Shown in pieces: positions 2,243-57,371 of a stretch of DNA of 64,000 nt. Below the pieces are notes generated by a model. The model saw only the letters and a list, made by a program, of their open reading frames with translations, was not told where the DNA came from and made no database searches. Source of the stretch: an uncultured Spirochaetales bacterium (lineage in GTDB: Bacteria; Spirochaetota; Spirochaetia; Sphaerochaetales; Sphaerochaetaceae); the NCBI GenBank assembly GCA_949283305.1, contig CASDRU010000016.1:10155-74154 (forward strand), in the 5' to 3' direction. How positions within the stretch are numbered: position 1 is the first letter of the stretch; each line of letters begins with the position of its first letter. The position numbers and the translations under genes were made by a program.

Positions 2243-2245
2243 CTT

Positions 2246-3094: not shown

Positions 3095-3106
3095 AACTCC
3101 TCCTTT

Positions 3107-3136
3107 AATAAAAAAGCCCTTCCAAAATGGAAGAGC
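3107..3136 (-). terminator. intrinsic terminator hairpin immediately upstream of the hisG SD (candidate attenuator)
   Basis: Minus-strand RNA reads GCUCUUCCA-UUU-UGGAAGGGC (9 bp, one G-U) followed by UUUUUUAUU, then AAAGGAGG and the hisG AUG. Confidence 0.55.
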
Positions 3137-3165
3137 CTCTTATAAAAAACACCACCATCCTGGAA

Positions 3166-3216
3166 TCAGGCTGTACGTGATGTGTGATGATGTGCTTCTG
3201 TGTTTCTATATATCAT
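3166..3216 (-). promoter_or_regulatory. candidate his leader peptide ORF (MIYRNTEAHHHTSRTA)
   Basis: 16-codon ORF with three consecutive His codons (CAT CAT CAC), 30 nt upstream of the terminator hairpin. No SD is visible upstream of its ATG. Confidence 0.35.
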
Positions 3217-3248
3217 GACAAAAGATTAATCCCTATTCTCTTCTCTGG

Positions 3249-3824
3249 TCAAGACTTTTCCTCATATGTTACATCAACATTCCCGTTTTTCCTGTCAATG
3301 TACCATTTTGCAACAGCAGAAACAACCATCGCTGTTCCAGCAACGATCAAAATGATAGCAATTACTGTCATCACAACTGACTGGATGAAGGATGGGAAGA
3401 GGAACAGGAAAACTGCAAAGATCACTGATGAGACTGCACTGGTTATGAGAGTCGATGGAATCCCGAGCTTCTTCAGCTTCACTGAATCCAGTATACCGAC
3501 AGCTCCGGAAAGGAGCAGATCAAGGGCAAAGAGGTAGATTATGATGTTTCCAAGCACATGGGGCTTTGCAAGCGAGAGATATATTATGATTAGAGAAAGG
3601 ATTATATTTATCCCGTTCTTCAGCGCGCCTGTTATGAAAAGCCGCCTTGATGAACGGAGGAAATACCTTGTCACAACATACAGCTCCCTTGCTGATGAGA
3701 AGAGAAGGAAGAATGCGAGGATAAGAAAAACTATTGCTATTACTCTTGACGGGAAAAGAAGAATCAAAAATCCCAATAAAAGAGGGAACAGCGCCGTGAT
3801 AATCTGTAGTGCTAACTTTTTCAT
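3249..3824 (-). CDS. multi-pass membrane protein (HdeD/DUF308-like, tentative)
   Basis: 191 aa, about six hydrophobic helices, no catalytic motif recognised. Confidence 0.55.
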   Translation of the reverse strand: MKKLALQIITALFPLLLGFLILLFPSRVIAIVFLILAFFLLFSSARELYVVTRYFLRSSRRLFITGALKNGINIILSLIIIYLSLAKPHVLGNIIIYLFALDLLLSGAVGILDSVKLKKLGIPSTLITSAVSSVIFAVFLFLFPSFIQSVVMTVIAIILIVAGTAMVVSAVAKWYIDRKNGNVDVTYEEKS

Positions 3825-3863
3825 ACTTATAATTTAAACCCACTTATTAAAAAAAGCAAAAAA

Positions 3864-4592
3864 ATGTATCTTTTCATTATGCACGACCTGTTATTTGATA
3901 TGGACGGCACGCTTTATGACTTCAAGAAAAGTGAGAGCGTATGCCTTGAGAAAGTATTTCGTGAAGCTGATATTGCTTACACTGATGAAATGATTGCACT
4001 CTATCAGAGTGTGAATCACAGGCTCTGGGATGAATATGAGAAAGGACTCGTCAGCCAGAGCTATGTTGAAAATGAGCGCATGCAGCTCTTCTTTGATGAA
4101 ATCGGATGCAGAAAAGACGGGCATAAAGCCGCCTCCGATTATGTAGAATACCTTTCCCAGACTGACTTCATGATTGATGGGGCCAGGGATTTTCTAGAGA
4201 GGATAAAGGACAACAGACGCCTTTTCATAATCACCAACGGTATTGCGAAGACACAGTATGGCAGGCTCCGCAACAGCCTTACCATGGACTTTTATGACAG
4301 AGTTTTCATCTCCGGTGAAATCGGGCTACAGAAACCGGAGAAAGCTTTCTTTGACCATGTCATGAAAGAAGGCGGCATCTCAAGAGAGAATGCTATTGTG
4401 ATTGGAGACAGCGAGAAAAGCGACATAATGGGAGCACGGAATGCAGGCATGAAGAGCATCTTCATTTCATTTGACAGAAAGAAATCCAGTCTTGCCGACT
4501 ACAGCGTCTCAACTTATGAAGAGCTATACAGCTTGATTGTTGACCTCGATAAGGCGGAGAGTAACAATCAAGAGCTCGTTCGGTCCAACTGA
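3864..4592 (+). CDS. HAD-superfamily hydrolase (YjjG-like nucleotidase subfamily, tentative)
   Basis: Motif I DMDGTL, and GDSEKSDIMGARNAG near the C-terminus. The start may be the ATG at 3879. Confidence 0.8.
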   Translation: MYLFIMHDLLFDMDGTLYDFKKSESVCLEKVFREADIAYTDEMIALYQSVNHRLWDEYEKGLVSQSYVENERMQLFFDEIGCRKDGHKAASDYVEYLSQTDFMIDGARDFLERIKDNRRLFIITNGIAKTQYGRLRNSLTMDFYDRVFISGEIGLQKPEKAFFDHVMKEGGISRENAIVIGDSEKSDIMGARNAGMKSIFISFDRKKSSLADYSVSTYEELYSLIVDLDKAESNNQELVRSN

Positions 4593-5234
4593 AAAGAATC
4601 CCTCTTCTCCAAATGCGTATGTGGGGTGTATCCAGAGCCGCCAGAGCGATCCCTCATTCATCATGATGAGGGCTTCTCTTATTGCAGGAATCATGGAGGA
4701 TACAAGAACCGTCTCTCCTCCTTCTGCAGTTGTTGCAACGTTTGAACCGTCAAGCAGGCTTATTGAATATGAGACAGTAACGGATGAATCACTTGCAGGC
4801 TTTACACCTTCCCCCTGATAAAGCACCTCATATTCAAATATATCCCGCACTGTGTTCACATTGCTTCTTTCTTTGTTGATTTTCAAAAAGGTCTCTGCCT
4901 CCTCCAGATTCTTCTCCGCCTCAGCTTCTCTCTCCTCCTGAGCAGACAGCAGTATATCCTCCTGATGGAGAGAGAATATGTTCATCATCTCATCATCAGA
5001 ATAAATATTCTCTCCCCTGCTTTCAGCAAGGACTCCGGATGCAAAGAAATATGGATCTATATCAATTGAGGACTCCCGGGTCATATTGTAAAAAAGAGCA
5101 CCGTAGGCATATGAGAACTTCTCCTCAAGGCTCTTGGGATCATTTAACAAAGCATAATCTGAATTCTCAGCGTTTTTTTCCTGTGAACAGGATAAAAGAA
5201 GAAGAGATAATAATATCAAAAAAAGCTTTTTCAA
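4524..5234 (-). CDS. FKBP-type peptidyl-prolyl cis-trans isomerase lipoprotein
   Basis: Signal peptide with lipobox LLLSC. C-terminal FKBP domain (VTVSYSISLLDGSNV...IHPTYAFGEEG). Confidence 0.85.
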   Translation of the reverse strand: MKKLFLILLSLLLLSCSQEKNAENSDYALLNDPKSLEEKFSYAYGALFYNMTRESSIDIDPYFFASGVLAESRGENIYSDDEMMNIFSLHQEDILLSAQEEREAEAEKNLEEAETFLKINKERSNVNTVRDIFEYEVLYQGEGVKPASDSSVTVSYSISLLDGSNVATTAEGGETVLVSSMIPAIREALIMMNEGSLWRLWIHPTYAFGEEGFFSVGPNELLIVTLRLIEVNNQAV

Positions 5235-5746
5235 AACACTTCTCCATTTGAGTCTATTATACAGATTGTGACCATGTCCTCAACCTCTATTGAAAGGAGA
5301 GCCTCGCTCAGAAGGTCATCATATGCAATCACGCTCGCACTTTTTATTACTGAAGAATAAAGTGCGCCGCAGCCTCCGAATGCCTGAAGGTACACGCTTT
5401 TATGTTCCTTGAGAGCATTCATCACCTCACTGCTCCTCGGGCCCTTTCCAATAAGGACCCTTGCACCGAGTGAGAGCATGTACGGTGTGTATTTGTCCAT
5501 TCTCTGGCTTGTTGTAGGGCCTGCAGATCCAATTACATCTCCCTCTTTCTTCTCAGATGGTCCCATATAATATATTCCTGAACCATCAAAATCCAGCGCT
5601 AGGCTGTTATGGCTGTCAAATATCCTCTTATGAGCAGCATCACGCGCGACAAAGAGCTTTCCGCTGATGATCACTTCATCACCCTTTTTTATGCTCAAAA
5701 GATCCTTTTCATCAGAAATGGGAAGAGTGAGTCTTACTTTATTCAA
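5231..5746 (-). CDS. class I fumarate hydratase / Fe-S hydro-lyase, beta subunit
   Basis: 171 aa with GKLFVARDAAHKRI and GPTTSQRMD motifs. Overlaps the alpha subunit gene. Confidence 0.85.
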   Translation of the reverse strand: MNKVRLTLPISDEKDLLSIKKGDEVIISGKLFVARDAAHKRIFDSHNSLALDFDGSGIYYMGPSEKKEGDVIGSAGPTTSQRMDKYTPYMLSLGARVLIGKGPRSSEVMNALKEHKSVYLQAFGGCGALYSSVIKSASVIAYDDLLSEALLSIEVEDMVTICIIDSNGEVF

Positions 5747-24185: not shown

Positions 24186-25556
24186 TCAGAATTCAGTAAG
24201 GAAAGCCGATGCGGTGAGCCTTCCTGCATAGCTGAATGCCTCGTCCGATGCGTCTTTATATTCCTCTGAATATCCGCACGAGAATACTGAGTAATCGCTG
24301 TATACTGTTTCCTGAGTCTTTGTATCAAACACATCTATATGTGCATCAACACGCACTGCGGTACTTCTTTCTGTTACTGTGTCATCAGTTATTCCTGCCC
24401 TTATTATGAGCACATACGGCTTTGCATCCCCGTTTGAAAGATAAGAATGAAGCACATCAGAAAGGCTCTCCCCTTCCCCTTTTACTGCAGAAAAAGGAAT
24501 CATGAGATCTGAAAAGAATGAATTGAATCCATCAAGGAACAGCTCATCCTCATTCTCCTCGCCTTTCTCATCATAAGTGACGATTACTGCATCGAGCATC
24601 AAAGAGAAATCGAAACGCTCATCGTAGGTGTAGCTCACGCTCTTTTCCTCTATGATCCTCATTATGCTCTCATAATATGCTGTATTCAGGCTCTCAAGCT
24701 TCTTCAGCTTCTCCTCATCAAAATTGAAAGATACATCCACTGCACCTTTTCTGATGTAATAGCTGTTCGTGAAAACCGCATCATATCTGCCCTTGCTGTC
24801 AGTCAGGCCGTCAATATAATCACTCTTCATCTCTGAATCGCTCTCGACCATTTTAAAAGTGAAGATCAAAGGGGCATTTTCAACAGGAGGATGGAAAAGC
24901 CCTCTGTTTCTTTTCACGCTTGCATTGCTGTTTATACTGCCGGAATCTGAACTGACCTTTAAATTCATGCCCTCAAGGTAATATGAGACATAATCGCTGT
25001 AAATTACAGTGCTTCTGACACTCTCATCCCTGACAGGTCCCTCCAGAGAGAGAATAAGCGCGTCAAGAGAAAGAGAAAAAGCATCAGCATCAAAGCCATC
25101 GCGGTATCTTTCTCTTGATGAGGCCAAAAGCGTTTTTATCTCTTCTTCTCTTTCCTGGCTCTCTGCAGCCTCAATTGTCCTCATCTGGTCAAAGAGATCC
25201 GCATCGACAGAAAATCCGAGATAGAACGTATATTCATCCCCGGAGCGGAAACTGTATGTGTTTTCCACCCTTCCCTCAAGCTCTGCGATGCTTCCGCCTG
25301 TGAGCATCTGACGGTAATACCTTGTATATGCATCCCAGCCAAGGTCCCTGCTCATCTCATCGAGGGAAGATCTGTATGCACCCTGACGAGCTTCATCCTC
25401 ACTTGAAGCAGTGGCAGAAGAGATGAAAAGGATGCGGCCTGACGGGCTATGCGGATTTGTAATCCAGAGGGGAAGATTGAGACGGGAAAGGTCAAAAGAA
25501 GAGCATGATGTGAAAATCAATAGTGCTGAGAGTAAAAGAAAGACAATTTTCTTCAT
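24186..25556 (-). CDS. lipoprotein of unknown function (LPP20-like N-terminus, tentative)
   Basis: Signal peptide with lipobox IFTSC. 456 aa. 4-nt overlap with the upstream gene. Confidence 0.6.
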   Translation of the reverse strand: MKKIVFLLLSALLIFTSCSSFDLSRLNLPLWITNPHSPSGRILFISSATASSEDEARQGAYRSSLDEMSRDLGWDAYTRYYRQMLTGGSIAELEGRVENTYSFRSGDEYTFYLGFSVDADLFDQMRTIEAAESQEREEEIKTLLASSRERYRDGFDADAFSLSLDALILSLEGPVRDESVRSTVIYSDYVSYYLEGMNLKVSSDSGSINSNASVKRNRGLFHPPVENAPLIFTFKMVESDSEMKSDYIDGLTDSKGRYDAVFTNSYYIRKGAVDVSFNFDEEKLKKLESLNTAYYESIMRIIEEKSVSYTYDERFDFSLMLDAVIVTYDEKGEENEDELFLDGFNSFFSDLMIPFSAVKGEGESLSDVLHSYLSNGDAKPYVLIIRAGITDDTVTERSTAVRVDAHIDVFDTKTQETVYSDYSVFSCGYSEEYKDASDEAFSYAGRLTASAFLTEF

Positions 25557-26449
25557 AGCAGTACTCCTGCTGATATGCTCATCGTATTTCCCCTTAATGT
25601 TGAATATCTGTAGGCTATATTATAATACAGATTCACGCTGATATAGTGCTCATAGCCTGCTACAATTTCAGCTTCAAGCGAAAACGATGGCGAAAAAGAA
25701 AAAAGCATTGCAGCATCTGCAAAGACTGCCCCGCTTCTGATCATGGAGAAATCTGAAGAAAGGAGCGATGAAAGATTCCACCTCGCCTTGAGAGACAGAA
25801 GCGGCGAATATATGCTCCTTCCACGCACATTTGTGTATTCAAAGCCTAAAGAAGGATATATGTTCTTGAAAAGACTCATGAAATAAAAGCGGATACCCGC
25901 AGAAGGCATAAAGGAATCAAGAGGGGTCGAAAAAGAGATCTCGGCTGAAAAAACAGGTCCGCTTTGAACTCTGTAGCCTGCCTTTGCACTCTTTCCTGAA
26001 AAATGCTCAAGCATGTTCACTCCATCTTCTTTCTCGCTGACCATCAGAACGCTCTTTCTCTTCCCCTCATCATCCAGCGCATATAAAAGCTTTCCTTCAC
26101 TGTAGTCTGTCTCAGATGCGATGAAGCGCCCGTCCTCATAGAAAATCACAGGGCCATCGGAAAAGAGGGCCTTCTCAAGCCGGAGTGAGTTCTCTATGCT
26201 CTTCTTTATCTCTTCTTCCCCGCTTGCGCTGATGTTCCTCTCCTTGCCGTCCACCGTATATGAGATGAAGATGAATCCATCACTTTCTCTGTAATCCGTG
26301 ATAACTAAATCCGCATCCCGTCTTCCATCCATCTGGGAATAAAATACAGAGAGTATTTCATCCGGGACCGTGCCGGGAGCAGAAACAGATGAGAAGGCTG
26401 ACAGATTAACCAGCACAAGAAGAGACAGAAGTATTGCTATCTTTCTCAA
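25553..26449 (-). CDS. secreted protein with a beta-rich C-terminal half, unknown function
   Basis: Cleavable-looking signal peptide, and alternating hydrophobic pattern in the last ~130 aa. 4-nt overlap with pepT. Confidence 0.55.
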   Translation of the reverse strand: MRKIAILLSLLVLVNLSAFSSVSAPGTVPDEILSVFYSQMDGRRDADLVITDYRESDGFIFISYTVDGKERNISASGEEEIKKSIENSLRLEKALFSDGPVIFYEDGRFIASETDYSEGKLLYALDDEGKRKSVLMVSEKEDGVNMLEHFSGKSAKAGYRVQSGPVFSAEISFSTPLDSFMPSAGIRFYFMSLFKNIYPSLGFEYTNVRGRSIYSPLLSLKARWNLSSLLSSDFSMIRSGAVFADAAMLFSFSPSFSLEAEIVAGYEHYISVNLYYNIAYRYSTLRGNTMSISAGVLL

Positions 26450-27672
26450 GCTTCCACCTGTATTTTCATTATCTCAAGAACAAGGAGGGCCGAACGGTGC
26501 ATTGCATCAAGACTCACCCACTCTTTCAGAGAATGAAGATTATGTCCGCCTGTGAAGATATTGGGACAGCTTATGCCGAGCCTCTCAGCCATTCTTGCTC
26601 CATCAGTTCCTCCGCGGATTATTGTCTTCCTGATATCGACACCTATATTCTTTCCCCCGTTAACTATCGCATCAATGGCAGATGAATCCCTGCGGTTTAT
26701 CTCCCCCATGTTGTGATATGAGACATGGCTTGTTATCTCAAGTGAGCCGCGGTATATGTCGGCAATTGCTTTTGCAAGATTCTCAACTGAGGCAATCCTG
26801 TGCTCGAACTCAGCTTTATCAAAATCCCTGATGAACACATCAAGACGAGCCTCTGTCTGGGTTCCGGAAAGCGAAAGCGGGCAGTAATAGCCGTAGCGCT
26901 CATCCGTTGCTTCCGGGCTCTCTGCCTGGGGAAGAGCTGATGCGATATGAGAAAGAATTGTGACCGCATTTACAAGCTTTCCGCGCGCCGACCCAAGGTG
27001 AATGCTGTTTCCTTTTGCATTTATCGTGATGCTTGCAGCGTTGAAGCATTCATCTTCTATATATGGCTCCTCTGCCCCGTCTATTGTGTAACAGACTTTG
27101 GCAGAGACCCTCTCATACGGGAAATTGTCCATTCCTGCACCGGTTTCTTCATCGCATGTAAAATAAACCTCAATATCCGGATGAGGAAAGTCGGGATTTT
27201 CCTTTATGTATTCAAGGACGCTCATTATTATCGCAACCCCTGCCTTGTCATCAGAGCCCAGCAGTGTGCTGCCGTCACTTGTTATGATGCATCCTCCTTC
27301 ATATTTTTTCAAATCAGGATTCTCTTCGACAGAAATCACAACCCCAGAAGAAAGAGTTATGTCCTTTCCGTCATAGCACTCTATTACATTTGCTTTAACT
27401 CCGTTGCCCATCACGTCATCGGCAGTGTCCACGTGAGCCATGAAAGCAATCCTTCTGCCTTTTCTGTTGCCCTTGAGCACGCCTGAAAGGACCCATGTAT
27501 CATCAAGCATTGTCTCCAGGCCAAGAGCCTTGAGCTCTTTCTCAAGCTGGAGTATAAGATCCTTCTGACCCTCTGTTGTAGGGATTTTCTTTCCCGCATT
27601 CTCGGGATTGCTCATAGTGTCGAATTCTGTATAACTGATAAAACGTCTGACAAGTGACTTTTTGATATCCAT
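26446..27672 (-). CDS. pepT: peptidase T (tripeptide aminopeptidase)
   Basis: FMAHVDT, SDDKAGVAI and CDEETG motifs of M20B PepT. Confidence 0.9.
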   Translation of the reverse strand: MDIKKSLVRRFISYTEFDTMSNPENAGKKIPTTEGQKDLILQLEKELKALGLETMLDDTWVLSGVLKGNRKGRRIAFMAHVDTADDVMGNGVKANVIECYDGKDITLSSGVVISVEENPDLKKYEGGCIITSDGSTLLGSDDKAGVAIIMSVLEYIKENPDFPHPDIEVYFTCDEETGAGMDNFPYERVSAKVCYTIDGAEEPYIEDECFNAASITINAKGNSIHLGSARGKLVNAVTILSHIASALPQAESPEATDERYGYYCPLSLSGTQTEARLDVFIRDFDKAEFEHRIASVENLAKAIADIYRGSLEITSHVSYHNMGEINRRDSSAIDAIVNGGKNIGVDIRKTIIRGGTDGARMAERLGISCPNIFTGGHNLHSLKEWVSLDAMHRSALLVLEIMKIQVEA

Positions 27673-27721
27673 ATATCACCTCTTGAAACATTATGCCACT
27701 TGTCAGCCTTTAGGGAAAGTT

Positions 27722-28588
27722 CTACCCGCTTATTTTCTTCAGTATTGAGAAATCCTGCCATACCTGGTAAACAGTGAAGACTCCGAGAATTACTGCGGCA
27801 ATCACAGGAGAATAGCCGAATGCTGCAGAAGTTGTCAGCACGGCACTGGCGATTCCCCAGGACGCAGCCGGCTCCTTTGTTATCTCAGTGATCCACTCTT
27901 CAAATGTCTGCTGCGGGATCGTGCTGTTCTTGTCAAAGAACTGGCAGAGTGAGTAGATTGCAGAGGCAAGAACACCGGCGGCAATTGCCGCGGCACATGC
28001 TGCTGTTACCTTCCCCCACACTACAAGGTTCGGCACGAATGCATACACAATTGCGGCAGTAAGCAGGACAGCTGCCTTTATGACCATCTTGCGTACTATA
28101 TCGTTGTATTCCTTTCTCTGCTGGGTATTCATCACACGGCTCAGTGCGCTGCCGCTTTCCTCTAGATTGCGCTCAAGGTCATCAATTTCAGCTCTTGCCT
28201 TCTCTATCTCAGCCTTTGCCTCCGGGCTGCTCACCATGCTCTCTGCCTTATTGAACACTTCGTCCACATTGCTATACTCATCAGTGTAGAGAGCAAACTC
28301 CAGATATTCTCTTCCTCCCTCCTCGCTCAATGTCCTGCTTGCCACCTGGCGGGCATCAAAATCCTCTTCAAGGATTCTCTCAAGATCTTCAGGAAGGCTC
28401 TCATCCTCCCTCAAGGCCTTCTTCACTTCATCAAGATGCATGTCAATCAGCTTTGCTGCCCTCTCGGCAAGAAGCCTGTCTGAAAGACTTTCCGGCCCCG
28501 ACAGTCCCATGGTGCATGAATAAAGCAGCGATGCGATGAGGATTATCGCGATGACCTTCACTCTCTGTGTTTTTGCGAAAAATTCCAT
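27722..28588 (-). CDS. membrane lipoprotein-like protein, unknown function
   Basis: Lipobox LLYSC, acidic coiled-coil-like middle region, 3-4 C-terminal TM helices. Confidence 0.55.
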   Translation of the reverse strand: MEFFAKTQRVKVIAIILIASLLYSCTMGLSGPESLSDRLLAERAAKLIDMHLDEVKKALREDESLPEDLERILEEDFDARQVASRTLSEEGGREYLEFALYTDEYSNVDEVFNKAESMVSSPEAKAEIEKARAEIDDLERNLEESGSALSRVMNTQQRKEYNDIVRKMVIKAAVLLTAAIVYAFVPNLVVWGKVTAACAAAIAAGVLASAIYSLCQFFDKNSTIPQQTFEEWITEITKEPAASWGIASAVLTTSAAFGYSPVIAAVILGVFTVYQVWQDFSILKKISG

Positions 28589-28601
28589 AGCTCCTCCTTT
28601 T

Positions 28602-29117
28602 TCAGAGTTTCACTCCTACAAGAAGAGATGCGTAGATATCCATATAGGACAGAAAATATTTTTTCAGTATGTCAAGGCTCTCGCTCACAAGCATCGCAGG
28701 ATCTGTGATATATATTCTCGGCTCGAAATAGAAATAAGAGAATGAGAATGTCCATCCAGCGGTTATCGATGAGAAGAACACATTGCGCTCAGGAGGACTG
28801 AAATGTCCGAAGAACCTTCCATAGCGGATGGCATCAACACCTATGAAGAACCCAAGGCTGTCAAAAGGGTAATAATCAAGGCGGAAGGAGGTATCAAGAA
28901 GCGCGATATCACTCTCAAGATCAAAATTATAGGAAATGGAGAAAGCATAGCGCATGCTCCCGCTTCTGATTGAGAACTCAAGAGGAACCCTCTTGCCGCT
29001 TAAGAAGAATGAATCTGTTGCCACTGCATCAGCTGCTATGTAATAGCTGACTGCAGATACGGATAAAAGTGGAAGAAGTAAAAGCAGCAAAACCATGATA
29101 ATCTTCAGTTTTGCCAT
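28602..29117 (-). CDS. small secreted beta-rich protein (possible outer-membrane barrel)
   Basis: Signal peptide. 171 aa rich in aromatic/alternating strands. Confidence 0.5.
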   Translation of the reverse strand: MAKLKIIMVLLLLLLPLLSVSAVSYYIAADAVATDSFFLSGKRVPLEFSIRSGSMRYAFSISYNFDLESDIALLDTSFRLDYYPFDSLGFFIGVDAIRYGRFFGHFSPPERNVFFSSITAGWTFSFSYFYFEPRIYITDPAMLVSESLDILKKYFLSYMDIYASLLVGVKL

Positions 29118-29161
29118 GCTTTTGATGATAGCACAGAAATTAATCCCGTCAAGGGAAAAAA

Positions 29162-29689
29162 CTACCAGCCCAGAGCCTTCTTTATGTTCTCCTCTTCATC
29201 CTTTATTTTCTTTGATGTGAACTTGATTGTTTTATCATCATCCTTCAGAAAGAACTCGATCCCCATATGATAATCATCGACCTTCTTTATCGAGTATGAG
29301 TCAATATCATCCTTCCTGATGCTCAAAACTGCTCTGATGTTTCCCAAATCCGATTGACGGATAAAAAACTCAATATTCTCCTCATCAATTGAGAGCACTC
29401 CTGCCTTAAGCTCGGTCTTGCTACTTATATATCCGCATTTATAAAGAAACAGGCTGTCCTTCTTCCTCTTTCTCACCATGGATTTTGAGATATATGCCGT
29501 AGTTATGTAGTAAATGGCCGCAAGAAGCACAAGAGAGAGAATCAGAAGAAGATTTATCCTTCTGTATTCAAGGGATGAATAAACTATCCAGGCCATGTCA
29601 ATGAGTATGAGAGCTATCGAAAACTTATGAATCATCAGGTGTATTCTGCTTTTTTTTCTGACCATTTTCAAGGCATCAATTTCTCTCAT
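29162..29689 (-). CDS. membrane-anchored protein with a PH/GRAM-like C-terminal region (tentative)
   Basis: Two TM helices followed by a soluble domain. Start placed at an internal Met (29689; 29665 and 29635 are also possible) because the 29839 start overlaps the divergent gene. Confidence 0.5.
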   Translation of the reverse strand: MREIDALKMVRKKSRIHLMIHKFSIALILIDMAWIVYSSLEYRRINLLLILSLVLLAAIYYITTAYISKSMVRKRKKDSLFLYKCGYISSKTELKAGVLSIDEENIEFFIRQSDLGNIRAVLSIRKDDIDSYSIKKVDDYHMGIEFFLKDDDKTIKFTSKKIKDEEENIKKALGW

Positions 29690-29714
29690 TACAGGAATAA
29701 CAGAGGAGGAATGA

Positions 29715-31832
29715 ATGAAAAAAATCTTATGCATTCTTTTATCATTATCGGTACTTCTCCTTTTTTCCTGTAACCAGGAAGGAGAAAAGACAGCCACGAT
29801 GAGGATAATTCTTGAGGATGTGAAGACCAGCCGTCTCATAGCACCTGAAAATTATCCTCTTGAAATCGACACCTATTACATAACGGGTCAGGGTCCTGAC
29901 GGAAAGCGCTTTGACATCCATACAGGAAAGACAAGCGCGACGATTGAGAATGTCGTGATCGGAGAATGGACTATCAAGGTCCAGGGCCTGAATGAGTATG
30001 ACAATGTGATAGTCGAGGGAAGCAAGAGCTTTACTTTAAGCAACAGCAACAATTCTGTCACCATCACGCTTGACACGCTATATGGTGAAGGAGATCTGAG
30101 TGTCAAGCTCAAATGGAAGGACTCAACTGTCGAGAATCCAAGGCTTGAGGTCAACCTCACAAGGCAGAGTGGAGAAAAAGAGACACTGAATGCAGAGATT
30201 TCAGGGAACACAGCATCCATATATAAGGAAAATCTTGCAAGCGGATCATACATTTTCCAGGCCCAGCTCTTTGATTCAGATACTCTGATTTCAGGACTGA
30301 CTGAAGCAGTCAGGATAGTTGACAGCCAGATAAGTTCTGCTGAGCTCGATTTCGTGCAGACAGATTTCATACTCACACCGGGATCAATCAGCCTGATTGA
30401 CAAGTCAGGCATTCCTGTAAGATGCAATATCAGCGGCATTGACGGTGATCTGAAGGCCGGGCCTCACACAGTCACACTTGTTCCTGAGCGCGATGCGGAT
30501 CTGGAGGATCTTACAGTAAACTGGTATATCGATGGCAACCTTGCAGGAAGCGGAAGAGAATGCGAACTTACATTTGACACAGGAGTGCACCGTCTTGATG
30601 CTGTTGCATACACATCCAAACTGGGCTCATATGGCTCGACAGGACTCAGTGTCACAGTCCTGGATGACACTGATTTCGGAATTCCTGGAAATGCAAGAGT
30701 AATTGACAGCACAGCAGGACTCGATATAGGGCGGAACAATTATTTTTCCTTCCTTCCGGACGGAAGGCTGATGGCATTCAGCAGCGATGGAAATACTGCT
30801 CAGGTATTCAAGGTCTCTGCAAGCGAATTCACTCTTGAAAAAGAATATACAGGACTTGAGTTCCAGAAAGGATATGTCGCATCTGCACTTGCAGTGGAAG
30901 ATGATGAATCAGGAATGTTCAATATGCTTATATGCACTGATGATGACATAAACACATATCACTACTACATGAATCCAGAGACCCTTGAGCTCAATTATGT
31001 TAACTCATCCGGAGATACCTACTCATCAGATATGTGGTTTGGAAACTGCAAAATAACTAAGGTCCTGCCGGATATTGCATATGACACGGTTTATGATGAG
31101 TTCCTGTTTGTCGGAATAGATAATCCTCTTACAGAGGAGGATTATGAACGCCCTGCGATGTCTGGAAAAGTAGGAGCTATGATTGGAAGAAGGCCTGTTG
31201 ACGGTATAAATGCACACGAAGACTTTGCACTTCTTGATGCATATCCGGTACGCGATTTTGACAAGGATGCCACATTTGACAACCGTCCATCCTCCCCTCT
31301 TCTTGACACTGCGGCATTCGCAATCAGCCCAAACAGCGAGCAGTATGCGATAATAGACAGGAGCCAGGGAAGATTTGTCACATTGAACGAGATGACATTC
31401 GATCACACAGATTATTACGGAAACTTCCGCTATCATGGAGATTCATTTGCAGATCCGGATAAATATATCGGCGCAAATGACATGATATACAAGACAAATG
31501 ATATTGCGGTGATTGCCGGAAGGGGCTTCATAGCAACCGTTAAGACATATAAGGACAAGGGATCCACTGATGCTTTCTATAAGGAAGTGAGCGGTGCAGA
31601 TTTCTCAAGTCTTGCAATGAACCCGGTTACAAAGCACATATACGCTCTTGATGAAAGCGATGATGCACTTTATGTCTACACCGTATCTTCTAACGGGGAC
31701 ATCCAGGAAAGTGCTGTTATTGACACAGTCTCAAGCTATAGTGACATGGAGGTATCTCCAGATGGAAAGAGCCTTATTCTCTATAATTCCACAGGAGCTT
31801 CTGTCAAGATGATGCTTATAAATGTTAATTGA
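29715..31832 (+). CDS. large surface lipoprotein, Ig-like N-terminal modules plus beta-propeller-like C-terminus (tentative)
   Basis: Lipobox LLFSC. 705 aa. The C-terminal segment YALDESDDALYVYTV...SPDGKSLILYN resembles lactonase-type propeller blades. Confidence 0.65.
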   Translation: MKKILCILLSLSVLLLFSCNQEGEKTATMRIILEDVKTSRLIAPENYPLEIDTYYITGQGPDGKRFDIHTGKTSATIENVVIGEWTIKVQGLNEYDNVIVEGSKSFTLSNSNNSVTITLDTLYGEGDLSVKLKWKDSTVENPRLEVNLTRQSGEKETLNAEISGNTASIYKENLASGSYIFQAQLFDSDTLISGLTEAVRIVDSQISSAELDFVQTDFILTPGSISLIDKSGIPVRCNISGIDGDLKAGPHTVTLVPERDADLEDLTVNWYIDGNLAGSGRECELTFDTGVHRLDAVAYTSKLGSYGSTGLSVTVLDDTDFGIPGNARVIDSTAGLDIGRNNYFSFLPDGRLMAFSSDGNTAQVFKVSASEFTLEKEYTGLEFQKGYVASALAVEDDESGMFNMLICTDDDINTYHYYMNPETLELNYVNSSGDTYSSDMWFGNCKITKVLPDIAYDTVYDEFLFVGIDNPLTEEDYERPAMSGKVGAMIGRRPVDGINAHEDFALLDAYPVRDFDKDATFDNRPSSPLLDTAAFAISPNSEQYAIIDRSQGRFVTLNEMTFDHTDYYGNFRYHGDSFADPDKYIGANDMIYKTNDIAVIAGRGFIATVKTYKDKGSTDAFYKEVSGADFSSLAMNPVTKHIYALDESDDALYVYTVSSNGDIQESAVIDTVSSYSDMEVSPDGKSLILYNSTGASVKMMLINVN

Positions 31833-52654: not shown

Positions 52655-53145
52655 TGCATGCATACTATCAATCAGTCTGTGGCAGGATTCTGCTCACTGC
52701 CACAGAGGATTTTCTTACAGGACTCTATTTTGAGAACCAGAAAGGCTATCCTGATCTGTCAGGTTCAGAAGAAGGAGAAAACAGGGTAATAGCAGAGACA
52801 AGACGCTATCTTGATCTCTATTTCTCGGGCAGGGATCCTGATTTTTCTCCTTCCATTCTTGTTGAAGGGTCTGATTTCCACAAGAAGGTATGCTCACTCA
52901 TGCTTGAAATTCCATATGGAACGACAATGACATATAAAGAATTAGCAGACAGAATTGCAAAAGAAAGAGGCATAATGAAAATGTCTGCAAGAGCTGTAGG
53001 AGCTGCTGTCGGCAAAAACAGGATTTCTATAATTATTCCCTGCCACCGCGTAATCGGTTCAAATGGAAATCTCACAGGCTATGCCGGAGGGGTTGAAAGG
53101 AAAAGAAAGCTGCTTGAGCTTGAAGGCATCACCCTGTTTTCATGA
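52654..53145 (+). CDS. ogt: methylated-DNA--protein-cysteine methyltransferase
   Basis: IIIPCHRV active site. Its start overlaps the ade stop (TGATG). Confidence 0.9.
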   Translation: MHAYYQSVCGRILLTATEDFLTGLYFENQKGYPDLSGSEEGENRVIAETRRYLDLYFSGRDPDFSPSILVEGSDFHKKVCSLMLEIPYGTTMTYKELADRIAKERGIMKMSARAVGAAVGKNRISIIIPCHRVIGSNGNLTGYAGGVERKRKLLELEGITLFS

Positions 53146-53820
53146 AAACATTTTTCTGAAGCTGAATGCATCTTTAAATTCAAAAAATCTGTCAAGAACT
53201 CTAGAGCATTTCCCGATTGTCCAGCCGTTTATAAGGGCACAGATAACAGTGCCGGCCTTCACGCCCTCAAAATGCCACAGCCCAAAGAAAATGAATGACA
53301 TTATGATTGCAGTCATGCAGCTCATACAGTCATAGACTGTTTTTGTCTTATTGATGTCAAAGCCATATTCACAAGATATTTCCTTGACAAAAAGCTCATA
53401 CGCCTCCGGCGTAATATATGTTTTGAAAAGCAAAGATACACCAATGGCACATACGGCAAGACCAGAAATATAAAACACAGTCCGTCCTAAAAAAGAAGCA
53501 GAATCAATCAGATTCACAAGATTCAGCATCAGATCCAGAACATTTCCATAGATGAATGCTGTGATGAAAGAAAAGAGAAACTTCTTTTTAAACTGATGCA
53601 GAACCAATGAAAGTATGATAAGTACAAATGCCTGAAAACAATACTCGGCCATACCAAATGAAAACCAGCTTATATATTCTGATGCTTTGAGATAAACAAG
53701 ATAGGCAGGAGCGACAACCATGGACAAACCAAAATCTGCCTTCTCCATCAAGGCAGTGCCCAAAGCCAGAGCAATTATTCCAAATACATAGGCTACTTCT
53801 GTGTAAAACGTTCTTTTCAT
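53140..53820 (-). CDS. polytopic membrane protein (YczE-like, tentative)
   Basis: About 6 TM helices. Start at MKRTFY (53820). Confidence 0.55.
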   Translation of the reverse strand: MKRTFYTEVAYVFGIIALALGTALMEKADFGLSMVVAPAYLVYLKASEYISWFSFGMAEYCFQAFVLIILSLVLHQFKKKFLFSFITAFIYGNVLDLMLNLVNLIDSASFLGRTVFYISGLAVCAIGVSLLFKTYITPEAYELFVKEISCEYGFDINKTKTVYDCMSCMTAIIMSFIFFGLWHFEGVKAGTVICALINGWTIGKCSRVLDRFFEFKDAFSFRKMFS

Positions 53821-53972
53821 AACACTCCACATTAAAGATGACGTTTGATACAGAAACGGCAAAAGATGAAACAAGAAGAAAATACTCTTCCCCATTTAAT
53901 TCTACATCAAAAAGAAGGCTATGCTAATCTCTATTTTTTATGTCTGATACAAATGTCTTTAAACTCTTCATT

Positions 53973-54058
53973 AAAAAGGAGCGGCTCCTTGGATTACCGC
54001 TCCTCGCTTTATAAGAAAAGGTTTTGCATCACCTTTTGCATTTGCTGATGTGTTTGAA
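53973..54058. repeat. tRNA-flank repeat unit, copy A (hairpin + spacer, tRNA part almost gone)
   Basis: Hairpin GGAGCGG-N12-CCGCTCC at 53978-54003. The spacer is about 85% like copy C. Only tttgaac remains of the tRNA end. Confidence 0.75.
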
Positions 54059-54107
54059 CGCTCTTGATGATACAAACGGACGAAACTTTCAGAGGTGGAG
54101 GCTAAAT

Positions 54108-54302
54108 TCAGCAAAAGTGGCTACCTTCAGTCTGCTTTGTATTCAGCTCCTTCGTCTTCGTTACGATTCTCTCGATATTCTATAATATTTCTCTCCGCAT
54201 TGGACGCATTCTAGACAAGGGACATTCTTGATGATGTTTGTATAATCCTACATATGTTGTTGTAGACTCCTTGATCTCTTTTCTGCGGCAATATGAACAC
54301 AT
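54108..54302 (-). pseudogene. decayed YgiT/MqsA-type zinc-finger ORF (tentative)
   Basis: MCSYCRRKEIKESTTTYV in one frame and DYTNIIKNVPCLECVQCGEKYY in the next. A third frame carries NIERIVTKTKEL.... This gives CxxC...CxxC only after repairing two frameshifts. Confidence 0.3.
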
Positions 54303-54329
54303 CCATTTTCTCCTTGCAAAATCCAAACT

Positions 54330-54584
54330 TCAGTAAATGTTCTTGCGATGCCCAATCTTAAGAACAGAGATTATGATTCTCGATTCCTGGATTTCACAGA
54401 TTACCCTGTAATCCCCAACACGATACCGCCATAAACCTCGCATATTCTCGACAAGAGCTTTACCTCTGCTTCTGGGATTCTCAAGCCGTCCGACTTCATC
54501 CATGTAATCAAGAATCCTCTTCTGAATGGTCTTATCGAGCTTTTCGAGCTGCTTTCTCGCCGTTTCGGTGTATTGGATTCTCAT
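54330..54584 (-). CDS. relE: RelE/ParE-family toxin
   Basis: 84 aa with ...LWRYRVGDYRVICEIQESRIIISVLKIGHRKNIY. 4-nt overlap with the antitoxin gene. Confidence 0.88.
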   Translation of the reverse strand: MRIQYTETARKQLEKLDKTIQKRILDYMDEVGRLENPRSRGKALVENMRGLWRYRVGDYRVICEIQESRIIISVLKIGHRKNIY

Positions 54585-54814
54585 AGACCGAGCTCTTTCC
54601 TGATTTCATCGGATGAATAGGTCTTTTCCTTTCCTGCTCTGACTCTTTCACTTATGTCTACAGCATCATAGATATCTTCTATCTCGGAGAGGTAATCCTC
54701 AAGAAGGACATTGTAATAGAAACCAGAGCTACGCCTTGTTCTCTTGGCAAGATTGTCGACACGCTCTTTCAATTCTGGTGTAGTCCGAAATGTTACAGTT
54801 GATGTCAATGCCAT
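54581..54814 (-). CDS. ribbon-helix-helix (CopG/RelB-type) antitoxin
   Basis: MALTSTVTFRTTPELKERVDNLAKR... RHH N-terminus. Start at 54814 with GAGAGGAG upstream. Confidence 0.8.
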   Translation of the reverse strand: MALTSTVTFRTTPELKERVDNLAKRTRRSSGFYYNVLLEDYLSEIEDIYDAVDISERVRAGKEKTYSSDEIRKELGL

Positions 54815-54835
54815 ATCATTCTCCTCTCTATTTAG

Positions 54836-54864
54836 AATGTAATACATAGTTTGCATTGTGTCAA
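54836..54864 (-). promoter_or_regulatory. candidate promoter of the RHH/RelE operon
   Basis: On the minus strand TTGACA-17 nt-TACATT, flanked by imperfect inverted repeats AGAATACAT / ATGTATT..CT. Confidence 0.5.
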
Positions 54865-54895
54865 AATGTATTCTAGATTTGATCCGAAGGCAAAG

Positions 54896-55006
54896 AAAAA
54901 TAAATAAGGAGCGGCTCCTTGGATTACCGCTCCTCGCTTTGTATCATCTTTTGTGTTTGCTGATGGAGCCTGCTGGATTTGAACCGGCGACCCAAGGATT
55001 ATGAGT
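54896..55006. repeat. tRNA-flank repeat unit, copy B (hairpin + shortened spacer + tRNA 3' half)
   Basis: Hairpin at 54908-54933 is identical to copies A and C. Confidence 0.85.
54964..55006 (-). pseudogene. tRNA-Met 3' half fragment (discriminator to 5' edge of anticodon loop)
   Basis: 41/43 nt identical to 56011-56053. The two differences lie in the acceptor stem. Confidence 0.85.
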
Positions 55007-55207
55007 GCATCCTTCTGAGTGTCAGATACAAGTAGTTAGCGATATTTCTTGATATAAGATAAGTAATTAAATGATATGTGTAAATAAGAGTGCTCAGATA
55101 TGCTTCTTACTTATCTTCCTGTAGTAATTCTGCAAGAACTTCTGCCTGGAAAGGAAGAAGACTTTCTCCGACTTGGTTGGTCTATCATTATCCCATCTGA
55201 CCTTGGA

Positions 55208-55771
55208 CTATTCGAGAGTGCAGATATAATCAGCAACCTGTAAAAGCTTGTAGTCCTTCTGATAGGCTGTACGGAAATCCATTCTGTTTCCGAATATCTT
55301 CCCAAACGTATTCCTGAGGATTTTGCTTATAGCGGCTTGTCTGCAATCATAATATATGGTGATTCTTTCGAAGCTCTGAAAATAATCAAGTTTGTCCTCA
55401 ATGAAGCTTTTTATCTGATGTTCAAATGCATCTTCCAGTTGTTTGCTATCTTGATAGAACGATTTTTTTGCTGTGAATGTAGTGTAAGAAATTGGAAGCT
55501 GTTCTGCAAATCTTGCAAATACACGGAATATGCTTTTCCTTTCTTCACGTAGCATATTCTCAAATGGTTTATCCTGCCTTATCAATGGAATTGTATGTAT
55601 AAATGCTACCTTGCAATTCATTGATAGTAATTTCGCATCAAGGAAAGCAATCTCAGAAGAGATATCATCATCCTGATCATGGAAAACCATAGCAAGGCAA
55701 TATTCAGGATTCTGTCTGTTGGAAAGGTTCAGATTACCACTTTCATCGATATGGATAGACAGAACAGACAA
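55208..55771 (-). CDS. DUF3800-family protein, possibly truncated by an in-frame TAG
   Basis: TTG start. The N-terminal LSIHIDESGN is typical of DUF3800, as is LQVADYIC near the end. The same frame stays open for 37 more codons after the TAG, down to 55094. Confidence 0.7.
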   Translation of the reverse strand: MSVLSIHIDESGNLNLSNRQNPEYCLAMVFHDQDDDISSEIAFLDAKLLSMNCKVAFIHTIPLIRQDKPFENMLREERKSIFRVFARFAEQLPISYTTFTAKKSFYQDSKQLEDAFEHQIKSFIEDKLDYFQSFERITIYYDCRQAAISKILRNTFGKIFGNRMDFRTAYQKDYKLLQVADYICTLE

Positions 55772-55929
55772 GACAAGCCCCTTACAAAGAAATTGCCAGA
55801 GGTCTACCTCTGGCTCTACGGCGGGGAACTCGCCCCTGTTCGGCTTGGTGTCCGACCTAACTATAATATAGCAGGAAACTTACTCTTTGGAAAGTTCTAT
55901 TACCTCTGGTTCCTGGAGAAAGTGAAGGA

Positions 55930-56053
55930 AAATAAATAAGGAGCGGCTCCTTGGATTACCGCTCCTCGTTTGCTAAGAAAAGGCTTTGTATCACCTTTTG
56001 TATCTTAAGATGGGCCCTGCTGGATTTGAACCGGCGACCCAAGGATTATGAGT
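55930..56053. repeat. tRNA-flank repeat unit, copy C (hairpin + spacer + 3' half of the intact tRNA)
   Basis: Hairpin at 55940-55965 followed on the minus strand by TTATTTATTTT. It functions as the tRNA terminator. Confidence 0.85.
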
Positions 56054-56083
56054 CCTTTGCTCTAACCGCTGAGCTAAGAGCCC
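56011..56083 (-). tRNA. tRNA with CAT anticodon (elongator Met, or Ile2 if lysidinylated); CCA not encoded
   Basis: A 73-nt cloverleaf folded by hand: acceptor GGGCUCU/AGGGCCC, D arm GCUC/GAGC, anticodon arm AAGGA-CUCAUAA-UCCUU, T arm GCCGG-UUCAAAU-CCAGC (one C-A mismatch). Confidence 0.85.
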
Positions 56084-56135
56084 GTGCTCTGTAAATTTAG
56101 CAGAATTGAAATTTTTTCGCAATACCTGATTTTGC

Positions 56136-56164
56136 TTGACATAGTATGAGTCTGATGCTATATA
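56136..56164 (+). promoter_or_regulatory. candidate promoter of the ytrA-type operon
   Basis: TTGACA-17 nt-TATATA. Confidence 0.55.
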
Positions 56165-56168
56165 GTTA

Positions 56169-56186
56169 GTTAGTTGAGTAACTAAC
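56169..56186. promoter_or_regulatory. perfect inverted repeat, candidate GntR/YtrA operator
   Basis: GTTAGTT-GAGT-AACTAAC, located between the -10 and the SD. Confidence 0.5.
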
Positions 56187-56203
56187 CAATAAAGGAGAAA
56201 AAC

Positions 56204-56575
56204 TTGAGTTGGAATTTTAGAGAGGACATACCTATATTCATTCAACTTGCATCTTTTATTGAAGATGATATCTTCTGCCTGAAATACAGAGAAGGAGAAG
56301 CCCTTCCGTCAACCACAGAATTAAGCGCGACACTGCGCATCAATCCTGCAACAGTCCTGAAGGGCGTGAACATCCTTGTCGATGAAGGTCTGGTAGAGAA
56401 AAGAAGAGGTCTTGGAATGTATGTAAAGGAAAATGCAAGGGAAATGATAAAAGAGAAAAGAAAAGCATCCTTCTCTTCTTCATTTGTCTTTCCTCTTGTA
56501 AATGAGGCAAAGAAACTCGGAATGACTGAAGATGAGATACTGGATGCTGTTAAAAAGGAGATTGAAAATGATTGA
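56204..56575 (+). CDS. GntR-family transcriptional regulator, YtrA subfamily
   Basis: 123 aa with LPSTTELSATLRINPATVLKGVNILVDEGLVEKRRGLGMYV. TTG start with AAAGGAG upstream. Confidence 0.88.
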   Translation: MSWNFREDIPIFIQLASFIEDDIFCLKYREGEALPSTTELSATLRINPATVLKGVNILVDEGLVEKRRGLGMYVKENAREMIKEKRKASFSSSFVFPLVNEAKKLGMTEDEILDAVKKEIEND

Positions 56576-57371
56576 GATTAAGAATGTCTCTAAGAATTTT
56601 GGAGATATAAAAGCACTTGACAATGTATCTCTTGAAATTGAGAAAGGCCATATATATGGATTTTTTGGAAGAAACGGTGCAGGCAAAAGCACCCTCATGA
56701 GGGCAATTGCTGATTACATCCCTCTTACAGGGGGAAGCATCAGTGCCACCGAAGATGAAGATCTTTCAAGACTCGTATCCCTTTCCAGCGAGGACAACCT
56801 CTTTCTGTCCTCACTGCGTGTGAAAAAGATCCTTGAATATCTTTCTGATATTGGACGATGCGATGCAGAGGAGGAAGCCAGACTTTTGAGAGTCTTCAAT
56901 CTGAATGGAAAGAAGAAATGGGAAAAGCTCAGCCAGGGAGAAAGGATGATGCTGAAAAACATAATCACTCTCTCATCAGATGCCGAGTATCTGCTCTTTG
57001 ATGAACCTGTCGCAAACCTGGATCCGGTAAACAGGGACCTGTTTTATCATGAGGTGATGAGAAAGCTTGAGGAAGGGAAAGCCGTTTTCATATCAACACA
57101 CCTCATCAATGATATAGAGAATATTGCAGACAGGATAATATTCATAGACAGCGGAAGGATAATCCTTAATGAGAGTGCGGAAAAACTGAGCACTGCATGC
57201 CGTACATATTCAAAACCTGATGGGGCTTTCATCAAGCATGGCTTCCGCCTCAACAAGCCCTACTGGCTTATATTCTCAGAAGAAAGAGATGAGGATAAAG
57301 AGCATGTAGATCTTGAAAACCTGTTTATTGAAATGGCAAAGGAGGATTCAAATGAAAATTACAAGATATGA
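56568..57371 (+). CDS. ABC transporter ATP-binding protein
   Basis: Walker A GRNGAGKSTL, signature-like LSQGERM, Walker B LLFDEP. Its ATG overlaps the regulator stop (ATGATTGA). Confidence 0.85.
   Translation: MIEIKNVSKNFGDIKALDNVSLEIEKGHIYGFFGRNGAGKSTLMRAIADYIPLTGGSISATEDEDLSRLVSLSSEDNLFLSSLRVKKILEYLSDIGRCDAEEEARLLRVFNLNGKKKWEKLSQGERMMLKNIITLSSDAEYLLFDEPVANLDPVNRDLFYHEVMRKLEEGKAVFISTHLINDIENIADRIIFIDSGRIILNESAEKLSTACRTYSKPDGAFIKHGFRLNKPYWLIFSEERDEDKEHVDLENLFIEMAKEDSNENYKI

Follow-up and report, generated by a model that had tools for sequence, protein, structure and literature searches.

We analysed a 64,000-nucleotide stretch of contig CASDRU010000016.1, referred to here as the window, and describe an array of short gene modules at its only tRNA gene. 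The host, an uncultured species of Spirochaetaceae from the gut, is closely related to Candidatus Ornithospirochaeta avicola. Both ARAGORN and Rfam place a single tRNA gene in the window, an intact tRNA-Met with anticodon CAT at 56011..56083 on the (-) strand (RF00005, 65.7 bits). This gene, already recognized in an initial annotation made from the sequence alone, is the left anchor of the array. Reading along the (-) strand, it is followed by three copies of a repeat, which we call R, that enclose two units of gene cargo.

The core of R is the 26-nt hairpin GGAGCGGTAATCCAAGGAGCCGCTCC, present in three exact copies on the (-) strand starting at 53978, 54908 and 55940, with the spacings of 930 and 1032 reported before. 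No further copy exists in the 64 kb at up to 3 mismatches, and the shuffle expectation is 0. The hairpin is not the whole of the repeat: aligning the three copies, together with a profile search, identifies the unit as R, of ~80 nt. R begins with the final bases of the tRNA, then takes in a first hairpin (AAAAGG..CCTTTT), next the 26-nt hairpin, and a T-run. Its predicted RNA fold is terminator-like (-26.4 kcal/mol, z=-4.0). Within one genome, the 26-bp hairpin is invariant including the loop. Copy C, next to the tRNA, is 80 nt long (55934..56013, (-), nhmmer; hairpin 55940-55965) and contains both hairpins and the T-run. In copy B (65 nt, 54902..54966, (-); hairpin 54908-54933), 15 nt of the spacer are deleted. 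Copy A (78 nt, 53973..54050, (-); hairpin 53978-54003) borders the chromosomal flank, a DUF6198 membrane gene at 53140-53820. The geometry is unlike that of Xer dif modules, which are 28-bp sites of 11-6-11 layout in alternating orientation: all R copies are direct repeats, and the hairpin has 7-bp arms and a 12-nt centre. A smaller alternative hairpin, AAGGAG-CCG-CTCCTT, lies inside the 26-nt hairpin just before the T-run (55938-55952 and 54906-54920, (-)) and pairs a Shine-Dalgarno-like with an anti-Shine-Dalgarno-like sequence.

Copy B is preceded by a displaced 3' half of tRNA-Met (54964..55006, (-)). This 43-nt segment corresponds to tRNA positions ~31-73 and is identical to the intact gene at 41 of 43 positions, with both substitutions in the acceptor stem. 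The sequence upstream of it resembles the tRNA 5' half no more than shuffled sequence does (P=0.8). This confirms the break at the anticodon loop noted initially, and the possibility that copy B follows an entire decayed tRNA was rejected. The sequence GAAGGATGC directly before the displaced half restores an AAGGAT/ATCCTT inverted repeat round the anticodon-loop sequence (54994-55015), and the junction GAAGGATGC|ACTCATAATCCTT thereby keeps an anticodon-stem-like structure that resembles an attR core. Inverted repeats round a loop sequence are typical of the att cores of tRNA-targeting integrases, and tyrosine-integrase islands classically leave an intact tRNA together with a displaced 3' half that begins in the anticodon loop. 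The unit between copies C and B has this arrangement of an intact tRNA and a 3' direct repeat; the unit between copies B and A does not, and ends in a different element.

This element, which we call the A-block, is a non-coding segment of ~70 nt at 54051..54123 (-), immediately before copy A. It consists of two copies of TAGCCAC.. followed by CTGAAAGTTTCGTCCGTTTGTATCATCAAGAGCGTTCAAACA; the consensus is TAGCCACC.. one or two times, then CTGAAAGTTTCGCCCGATTGTATCATCAAGnnnGTTCAAACA. A tRNA vestige had been suspected at this position. Local alignments of the A-block to tRNA-Met, tRNA-Val and tRNA-Arg are no better than alignments to shuffled sequence (P=0.2-0.6), and this assignment was rejected in favour of a distinct, conserved element end. 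The A-block is kept before distal R copies in at least 8 further loci. Across species, it forms the conserved right end of units without DUF3800, behind RHH-ParE-YokU, MazE-PIN and 425-aa lipoprotein cargo. No conserved fold was found for it: the consensus fold of A-block plus R gives only the two R hairpins.

The unit between copies B and A carries a toxin-antitoxin (TA) pair, as first described. A ParE/RelE-family toxin gene (54330..54584, (-); PF05016, 2.4e-17) follows an open reading frame (ORF) for a ribbon-helix-helix (RHH) antitoxin (54581-54856, (-)) with a likely start at 54814, giving 77 aa. The RHH/DUF6290 match of the antitoxin is weak (E about 0.005-0.01, under the Pfam cut-offs). 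The toxin start overlaps the antitoxin stop by 4 nt, and a promoter scan predicts TTGACA-17-TACATT at 54836-54864 (-). The two genes have the type II ParE/RHH layout of a small RHH antitoxin before a ParE-fold toxin in one operon. The exact 77-aa protein is recorded in 74 collection blocks. Downstream lies a decayed YokU-like zinc-ribbon gene (54124..54326, (-); decayed ORF 54180-54326). Locus L001, one of the related loci introduced below, keeps an intact 74-aa zinc-ribbon homologue, for which the YokU match is marginal. Both window units have promoter-like sites of their own and an R terminator at the end.

The unit between copies C and B contains a DUF3800 gene (55208..55771, (-); PF12686, 1.7e-7), again in line with the initial annotation. 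Protein alignment indicates that the gene is ended early by a TAG nonsense codon at 55208-55210; conspecific homologues continue for 38 residues past it, to about 55091. Most DUF3800 copies are truncated, and other strains have N-terminal truncations or small deletions, some of which remove the leader terminator. Together with the nonsense codon in the window, these lesions indicate that the units are decaying.

Upstream of the DUF3800 gene, a predicted promoter, TTTCCA-17-TGnTATATT, and a structured leader or small RNA occupy 55777..55893 (-), with a terminator hairpin of their own at 55795-55814. Within this region, ~100 nt (55777-55873) comprise the TG-extended promoter and a conserved small structured RNA ending in the terminator. 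The terminator stem shows compensatory changes across 8 variants (GCCAGAGG/CCTCTGGC, GCCGGAGG/CCTCCGGC, GCCGGAGG/CCTTCGGC). DUF3800 genes accompany at least 11 unrelated structured RNAs of unknown function, DUF3800-I to -XI (Weinberg et al. 2017, PMC5737381), and the DUF3800 domain has been described as RNase H-like and tied to defence systems (PMC10910872, PMC13594972). As in those motifs, the gene adjoins a conserved structured RNA ending in an intrinsic terminator. Unlike them, the window leader matches no Rfam 15 covariance model (cmscan at E<=1 over 53000-57000, where the other matches were the tRNA and weak, sub-threshold, unrelated families). The leader may represent a further DUF3800-associated RNA motif of this type. 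We also considered the tRNA half as the RNA partner of DUF3800 and rejected it: in L034, L045 and L047 the leader module occurs with no tRNA, half-tRNA or R nearby. In L014 (8697-9618, compared with window 54967-55933), 7.8 kb of flanking sequence match the window at 100% identity, and a 45-nt deletion affects the DUF3800 leader and gene-start region, suggesting rapid local change. In L036 (1444-2150), an IS200-type Y1 transposase element sits in a DUF3800 leader, and in L047 (12484-14186) another DUF3800 module has an IS605 TnpA/TnpB pair close by.

Comparison of strains reveals how the number of DUF3800 units has changed. Ten contigs share an identical ParE protein with the window, and their flanks match it at 98.7-100% identity. 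Nine of these ten conspecific contigs, with flank identities of 98.8-100%, span the tRNA end of the array: four contain one DUF3800 unit, as the window does, and five contain two. In the two-unit strains, the units c1 and c2 stand in tandem, each ending in a tRNA half and R. They are 87-100% identical at their ends and only 63-71% identical in the centre, so they are either old paralogues or separate acquisitions. The single unit of the window is a chimera of the two, with c1-type bases at 175/175 informative sites upstream of a junction at 55274..55287 (-), and c2-type bases at 29/29 sites downstream. A single c1 to c2 switch inside the DUF3800 gene means that the one-unit state arose by homologous recombination within the gene, and not by exchange at R. 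The displaced copies also show a gradient of decay: the outer half has a 1-nt deletion, and copy B has two substitutions and the 15-nt deletion. The R copies themselves are variable. Among L013-L020, strains with ~99% identical flanks, the tRNA-proximal R occurs in at least 5 haplotypes assembled from interchangeable segments (TCTTAAGATAC or TCTAAAGACGT; CTTAGCAAACGA or ATTGCAAAACGA; loop TAATCC or TATTCC). Conversion among the R copies therefore seems to be frequent.

The array is not confined to one species. A scan of species-representative genomes with the 26-mer, a search proposed in the initial annotation, matched 12 genome loci, with R present in 12/12; all are metagenome-assembled genomes of uncultured Spirochaetaceae or Spirochaetales, including Candidatus Ornithospirochaeta avicola. 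R, its first hairpin and the A-block have no matches in IMG/VR or JGI metagenomes, and a BLAST search with the entire locus hit nothing but the tRNA gene among GenBank phages and PLSDB plasmids. In every tRNA-containing locus, tRNA-Met is followed directly by R, in at least 10 uncultured Spirochaetaceae species. Extra R copies bound further units, with two R in L001, L002 and L004, and four in L011. Two classes of unit occur between R copies: DUF3800 modules, which end in the tRNA-Met 3' half, and others, which end in the A-block and carry TA pairs or lipoprotein and phage remnants.

Both the content and the order of the units differ between species. In the sister species (L002/L023, 93% flank identity), the order is tRNA-R-RHH/ParE-A-block-R-DUF6198, and this array has no DUF3800 unit. 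L012 has tRNA-R-VapBC, and L001 has RHH/ParE-A-block-R-VapBC, 96.7% identical to L012 from R on. L011 reads tRNA-R-(truncated DUF3800 leader)-R-VapBC-A-block-R-RHH/ParE and further; VapBC therefore precedes RHH/ParE there, in the reverse of the order in L001. Such presence/absence and order variation, together with one or two DUF3800 units among conspecifics, is what the strain and species comparison recommended in the initial annotation was meant to look for. The sister species also helps to polarize the changes. Copy B and the bases beyond it are orthologous to the tRNA-proximal R of L002 and the sequence that follows that R. The spacer of copy C belongs to another allele, one foreign to the sister species and similar to the alleles of L012 and L004. 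The DUF3800 DNA was therefore inserted on the left side of R, inside the tRNA, consistent with an anticodon-loop crossover by an element bearing a tRNA 3' half and R.

R is also found at other tRNAs. It is fused to the last base of tRNA-Arg(CCT) in L024, L025, L027, L028 and L031, contigs that encode the identical 77-aa antitoxin, and to the last base of tRNA-Val(CAC) in L041, a contig with a 425-aa module. R is always preceded by either a tRNA 3' end or an A-block, and its junction, ..CA|T(C/T).., is constant for both. The RHH-ParE module is present in both tRNA-Met and tRNA-Arg arrays. L007 contains tRNA-Met followed by R and is apparently an empty site; its flank is 98% identical to that of L006, in which a 425-aa gene and an A-block stand before the R of the same flank in place of tRNA-Met. 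This 425-aa gene and A-block module is 97.5% identical between L006 and the tRNA-Val site of L041, and the adjoining R copies differ by ~11%.

The spread over species and tRNAs bears on a further explanation of the array, in which the tRNA gene was duplicated in tandem on the spot together with its flank, the extra tRNAs decayed and unrelated genes lie in between. Three direct copies of the flank in one place would be expected from such an event, and unequal crossing-over is clearly active here. However, the break before copy B is sharp at the anticodon loop and leaves no residual 5'-half similarity, copy A has no tRNA similarity, the R alleles are of different origin, and the two DUF3800 units share only 63-71% identity in the centre. 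The same units also recur at other tRNAs and in other orders. We consider a tandem duplication, which the cross-species data contradict, very improbable.

Longer islands with the same ends were found as well. In L033, an island of 8.8 kb or more terminates in the same DUF3800 gene, half-tRNA and R beside the DUF6198 flank; it carries genes for AbiTii, an invertase-type serine recombinase, ankyrin and NUDIX proteins. The A-block island of L041 contains HNH, Sie-like and amidoligase phage remnants and a fragment of a sigma-like regulator. A conserved left end of ~300 nt after R is common to L024, L025, L031 and L041 and holds the A-block-like motifs TTTAGCCACCC, TTTCGCCCAATAGTAT and TTTTGCCAAATAGT, for which shuffled sequence gives 0 matches. 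The A-block motif TTTCGCCCGATTGTAT thus returns as TTTCGCCCAATAGTAT and TTTTGCCAAATAGT ~150 nt inside the left end of the four islands. No integrase coding remnant was seen in this left end. The occurrence of the same motif close to both island ends resembles the arm-type sites of integrases, and the A-block is a candidate recombinase-binding arm.

We interpret the locus, with a probability of roughly 0.6, as a decayed mobile-element array at a tRNA hotspot, formed by serial site-specific integration followed by decay and homologous reshuffling. It looks like a known kind of site with unusual details, and not like a new cassette machine. The initial annotation had offered two options, serial integration followed by near-total deletion of each island, or an integron-like cassette array. 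The former, with loss through deletion or decay, is the better fit to the foreign allele of the tRNA-proximal R, the orthology of copy B to the native tRNA-proximal R of the sister species, the decay gradient and the truncated DUF3800 genes, and it is also backed by the island of L033 and the phage-remnant island of L041.

In this model, related integrative elements would have inserted serially beside the 3' end of tRNA-Met. Each insertion would have restored the tRNA, supplied its own R copy and moved the older copies inward. The RHH-ParE-YokU unit with its A-block end probably dates back to the common ancestor with the sister species. Diverged DUF3800 elements, c2 and then c1, may have integrated later by crossover in the anticodon loop, each leaving a tRNA 3' half and R. 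Finally, homologous recombination between c1 and c2 in the window strain removed one unit and left the chimeric DUF3800 gene, which also bears the nonsense codon. The footprint before copy B points to a tyrosine-type integrase as the probable original agent, and R and the A-block may be att arm sequences. The present units would be integrase-less remnants or miniature derivatives, whose further movement would need a recombinase from elsewhere, with the R copies acting as terminators and as homology for reshuffling. The model also answers the puzzle, raised at the outset, of a repeat that runs past the tRNA end. R occurs at every unit boundary, in many species and behind three tRNAs, as part of the unit that is recombined or inherited; every incoming element would carry it and every target would already have it.

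Known systems share much of this organization. Tycheposons of Prochlorococcus form tandem elements parted by partial tRNAs, with degraded remnants (10.1101/2020.12.28.424599), and the Dehalococcoides ssrA islands are tandem islands placed at tRNA/tmRNA genes by site-specific integrases (PMC3146451). As in these arrays, an intact tRNA stands at one end and partial 3' copies between successive elements, each newcomer displaces its predecessors inward, degraded remnants abound, and the cargo genes are of the defence or accessory type. The differences are that the units here are ~1 kb with no integrase or replication module in any unit seen, that most of R lies outside the tRNA, that the same R stands behind three tRNAs, and that a second class of units ends in the A-block. 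A further parallel are cis-mobilizable elements (CIMEs), which, together with other integrase-less elements, accrete at the att sites of integrative and conjugative or integrative and mobilizable elements (PMC5704250). Here too, att-type direct repeats flank units without recombination or transfer genes, and these units accumulate in tandem. Unlike known CIMEs, they reside in a spirochaete and carry TA and DUF3800 cargo, and their mobilization is putative, as an autonomous partner was not found in the DNA available.

The locus shows that a lineage of uncultured gut spirochaetes keeps a small, variable store of TA and DUF3800 defence-type genes at its tRNAs. It provides a worked example of how such an array may change, by serial insertion and then homologous deletion. 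Two details are noteworthy: one 80-nt trailer is fused to the exact 3' ends of three tRNAs, and integrase-less units have conserved ends on both sides.

Several observations weigh against the model of serial integration and decay. The ~1 kb units keep the same boundaries across species, for which discrete mobile mini-units are as good an explanation as independent deletions, or a better one. A simple attP/attB model needs additional assumptions to account for R standing immediately behind the final base of three different tRNAs and at the apparently empty site of L007. Even where strains have ~99% identical flanks, their R alleles are mosaic. The comparisons of L006 with L007 and of L006 with L041 point in opposite directions on the crossover; because of this disagreement and the R mosaic, the crossover position for A-block units cannot be fixed. 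No circular or excised form of a unit was observed. As anticipated in the initial annotation, no recombinase is visible: Pfam returned 0 matches to recombinase families in the 37 window ORFs scanned, which are a subset of the window's ORFs. None is present within +-10 kb in the precomputed Pfam lists of the ten conspecific contigs or in those of the antitoxin-bearing contigs, and, apart from the invertase of L033-L035 described below, none was found among the cargo ORFs scanned in the 8-20 kb tRNA-site arrays of other species.

These points bear on a second explanation, an active integron-like cassette system. A recombinase encoded elsewhere would act on R, with the A-block as the cassette site and tRNA|R as the chromosomal site, so that ~1 kb promoter-bearing units are inserted, excised and reordered at several tRNA genes. 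The units are discrete and bounded by R, with content and order that differ between species; one A-block module is found at two different chromosomal sites, and the RHH-ParE module at both tRNA-Met and tRNA-Arg. L024 amounts to a unit of 1.4 kb that has a conserved sequence at each end and lacks a recombinase. The invariant 26-bp hairpin has a 12-2-12 geometry with 7-bp outer inverted repeats that could suit a crossover site, and the mosaic of R alleles among strains is also compatible with exchange at R. Yet neither a recombinase nor an excision product or circle was seen, the cargo is in decay, R shows no covariation or signal beyond the terminator, and neither R nor the A-block was detected in the viral, JGI metagenome, phage and plasmid collections. 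The sole within-species change that can be traced, the loss of a DUF3800 unit, is a homologous recombination away from R. An active system is therefore rather unlikely in our view.

The comparison with integrons is similarly divided. Like chromosomal integron arrays, the locus contains tandem ~1 kb single-module units that are rich in TA genes, each ending in a sequence resembling a recombination site, and content and order vary between relatives. This part of the integron-like proposal stands, for strains as well as species; exchange at the repeats is not borne out by the one traceable copy-number change, which lies inside DUF3800. The integron-like logic also fails in its details. There is no IntI, no attI beside an integrase and no attC core or fold; direct reading of the unit boundaries gave no RYYYAAC...GTTRRRY pairs. 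The anchor is a tRNA gene whose neighbours are a GntR regulator and an ABC transporter, rather than intI, attI and Pc, and the units have their own promoters and terminators, unlike the mostly promoterless cassettes of integrons. A minority reading along these lines nevertheless stays alive because of the one-base joins of R and the empty sites, the mosaic R alleles and the constant ~1 kb boundaries, although we found no direct evidence for it. The R arrays could be the visible part of an undescribed gut-spirochaete cassette system, in which a distant recombinase recognises the 80-nt R with the A-block as an arm; we hold this to be distinctly unlikely. The same low likelihood applies to its corollary, an integron analogue without IntI or attC that places self-expressed ~1 kb defence or TA units right behind the final base of several tRNA genes. 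If a trans-acting recombinase for these sites does exist, it would define a compact site-specific system with substrates of ~80-150 nt.

It is also conceivable that no site-specific machinery operates today. R would then be a conserved tRNA trailer and terminator, and the units would spread and reshuffle by RecA-type homologous recombination alone: after DNA uptake, one crossover in the tRNA and another in an R copy would insert donor units beside the tRNA. Homologous recombination is demonstrated at the locus, the mosaic R alleles fit gene conversion, a tRNA/R double crossover also predicts a foreign R allele beside the tRNA, and no recombinase was found. This scenario leaves three things unexplained: the origin of the half-tRNA junction and its stem-like inverted repeat at the anticodon loop, the join of R to three unrelated tRNAs and to the A-block at one and the same base, and the conservation of the A-block motif at both island ends. 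We regard homologous recombination as an improbable sole cause. In a decayed array formed by integration, it would account for the later reshuffling.

Recombinase genes in related loci were inspected, and none could be tied to R. An invertase-like small serine recombinase lies by DUF3800 in L033-L035 and could not be linked to R, which L034 and L035 lack. The IS200/Y1 transposase beside R in L036 belongs to an independent insertion sequence (IS) with its own hairpins, the one located in the DUF3800 leader. Nor could an IS3 seen in related loci be tied to R. L038 encodes three tandem tyrosine recombinases beside tRNA-Asp, with no R nearby. These proteins of 430, 328 and 342 aa (2148-5426) adjoin tRNA-Asp and a DUF3800 module in an arrangement that is recombinase-in-trio-like. 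Elsewhere in the window, at 24186-31832, a run of ORFs without Pfam matches (456, 298, 288, 225 and 705 aa) lies among housekeeping genes.

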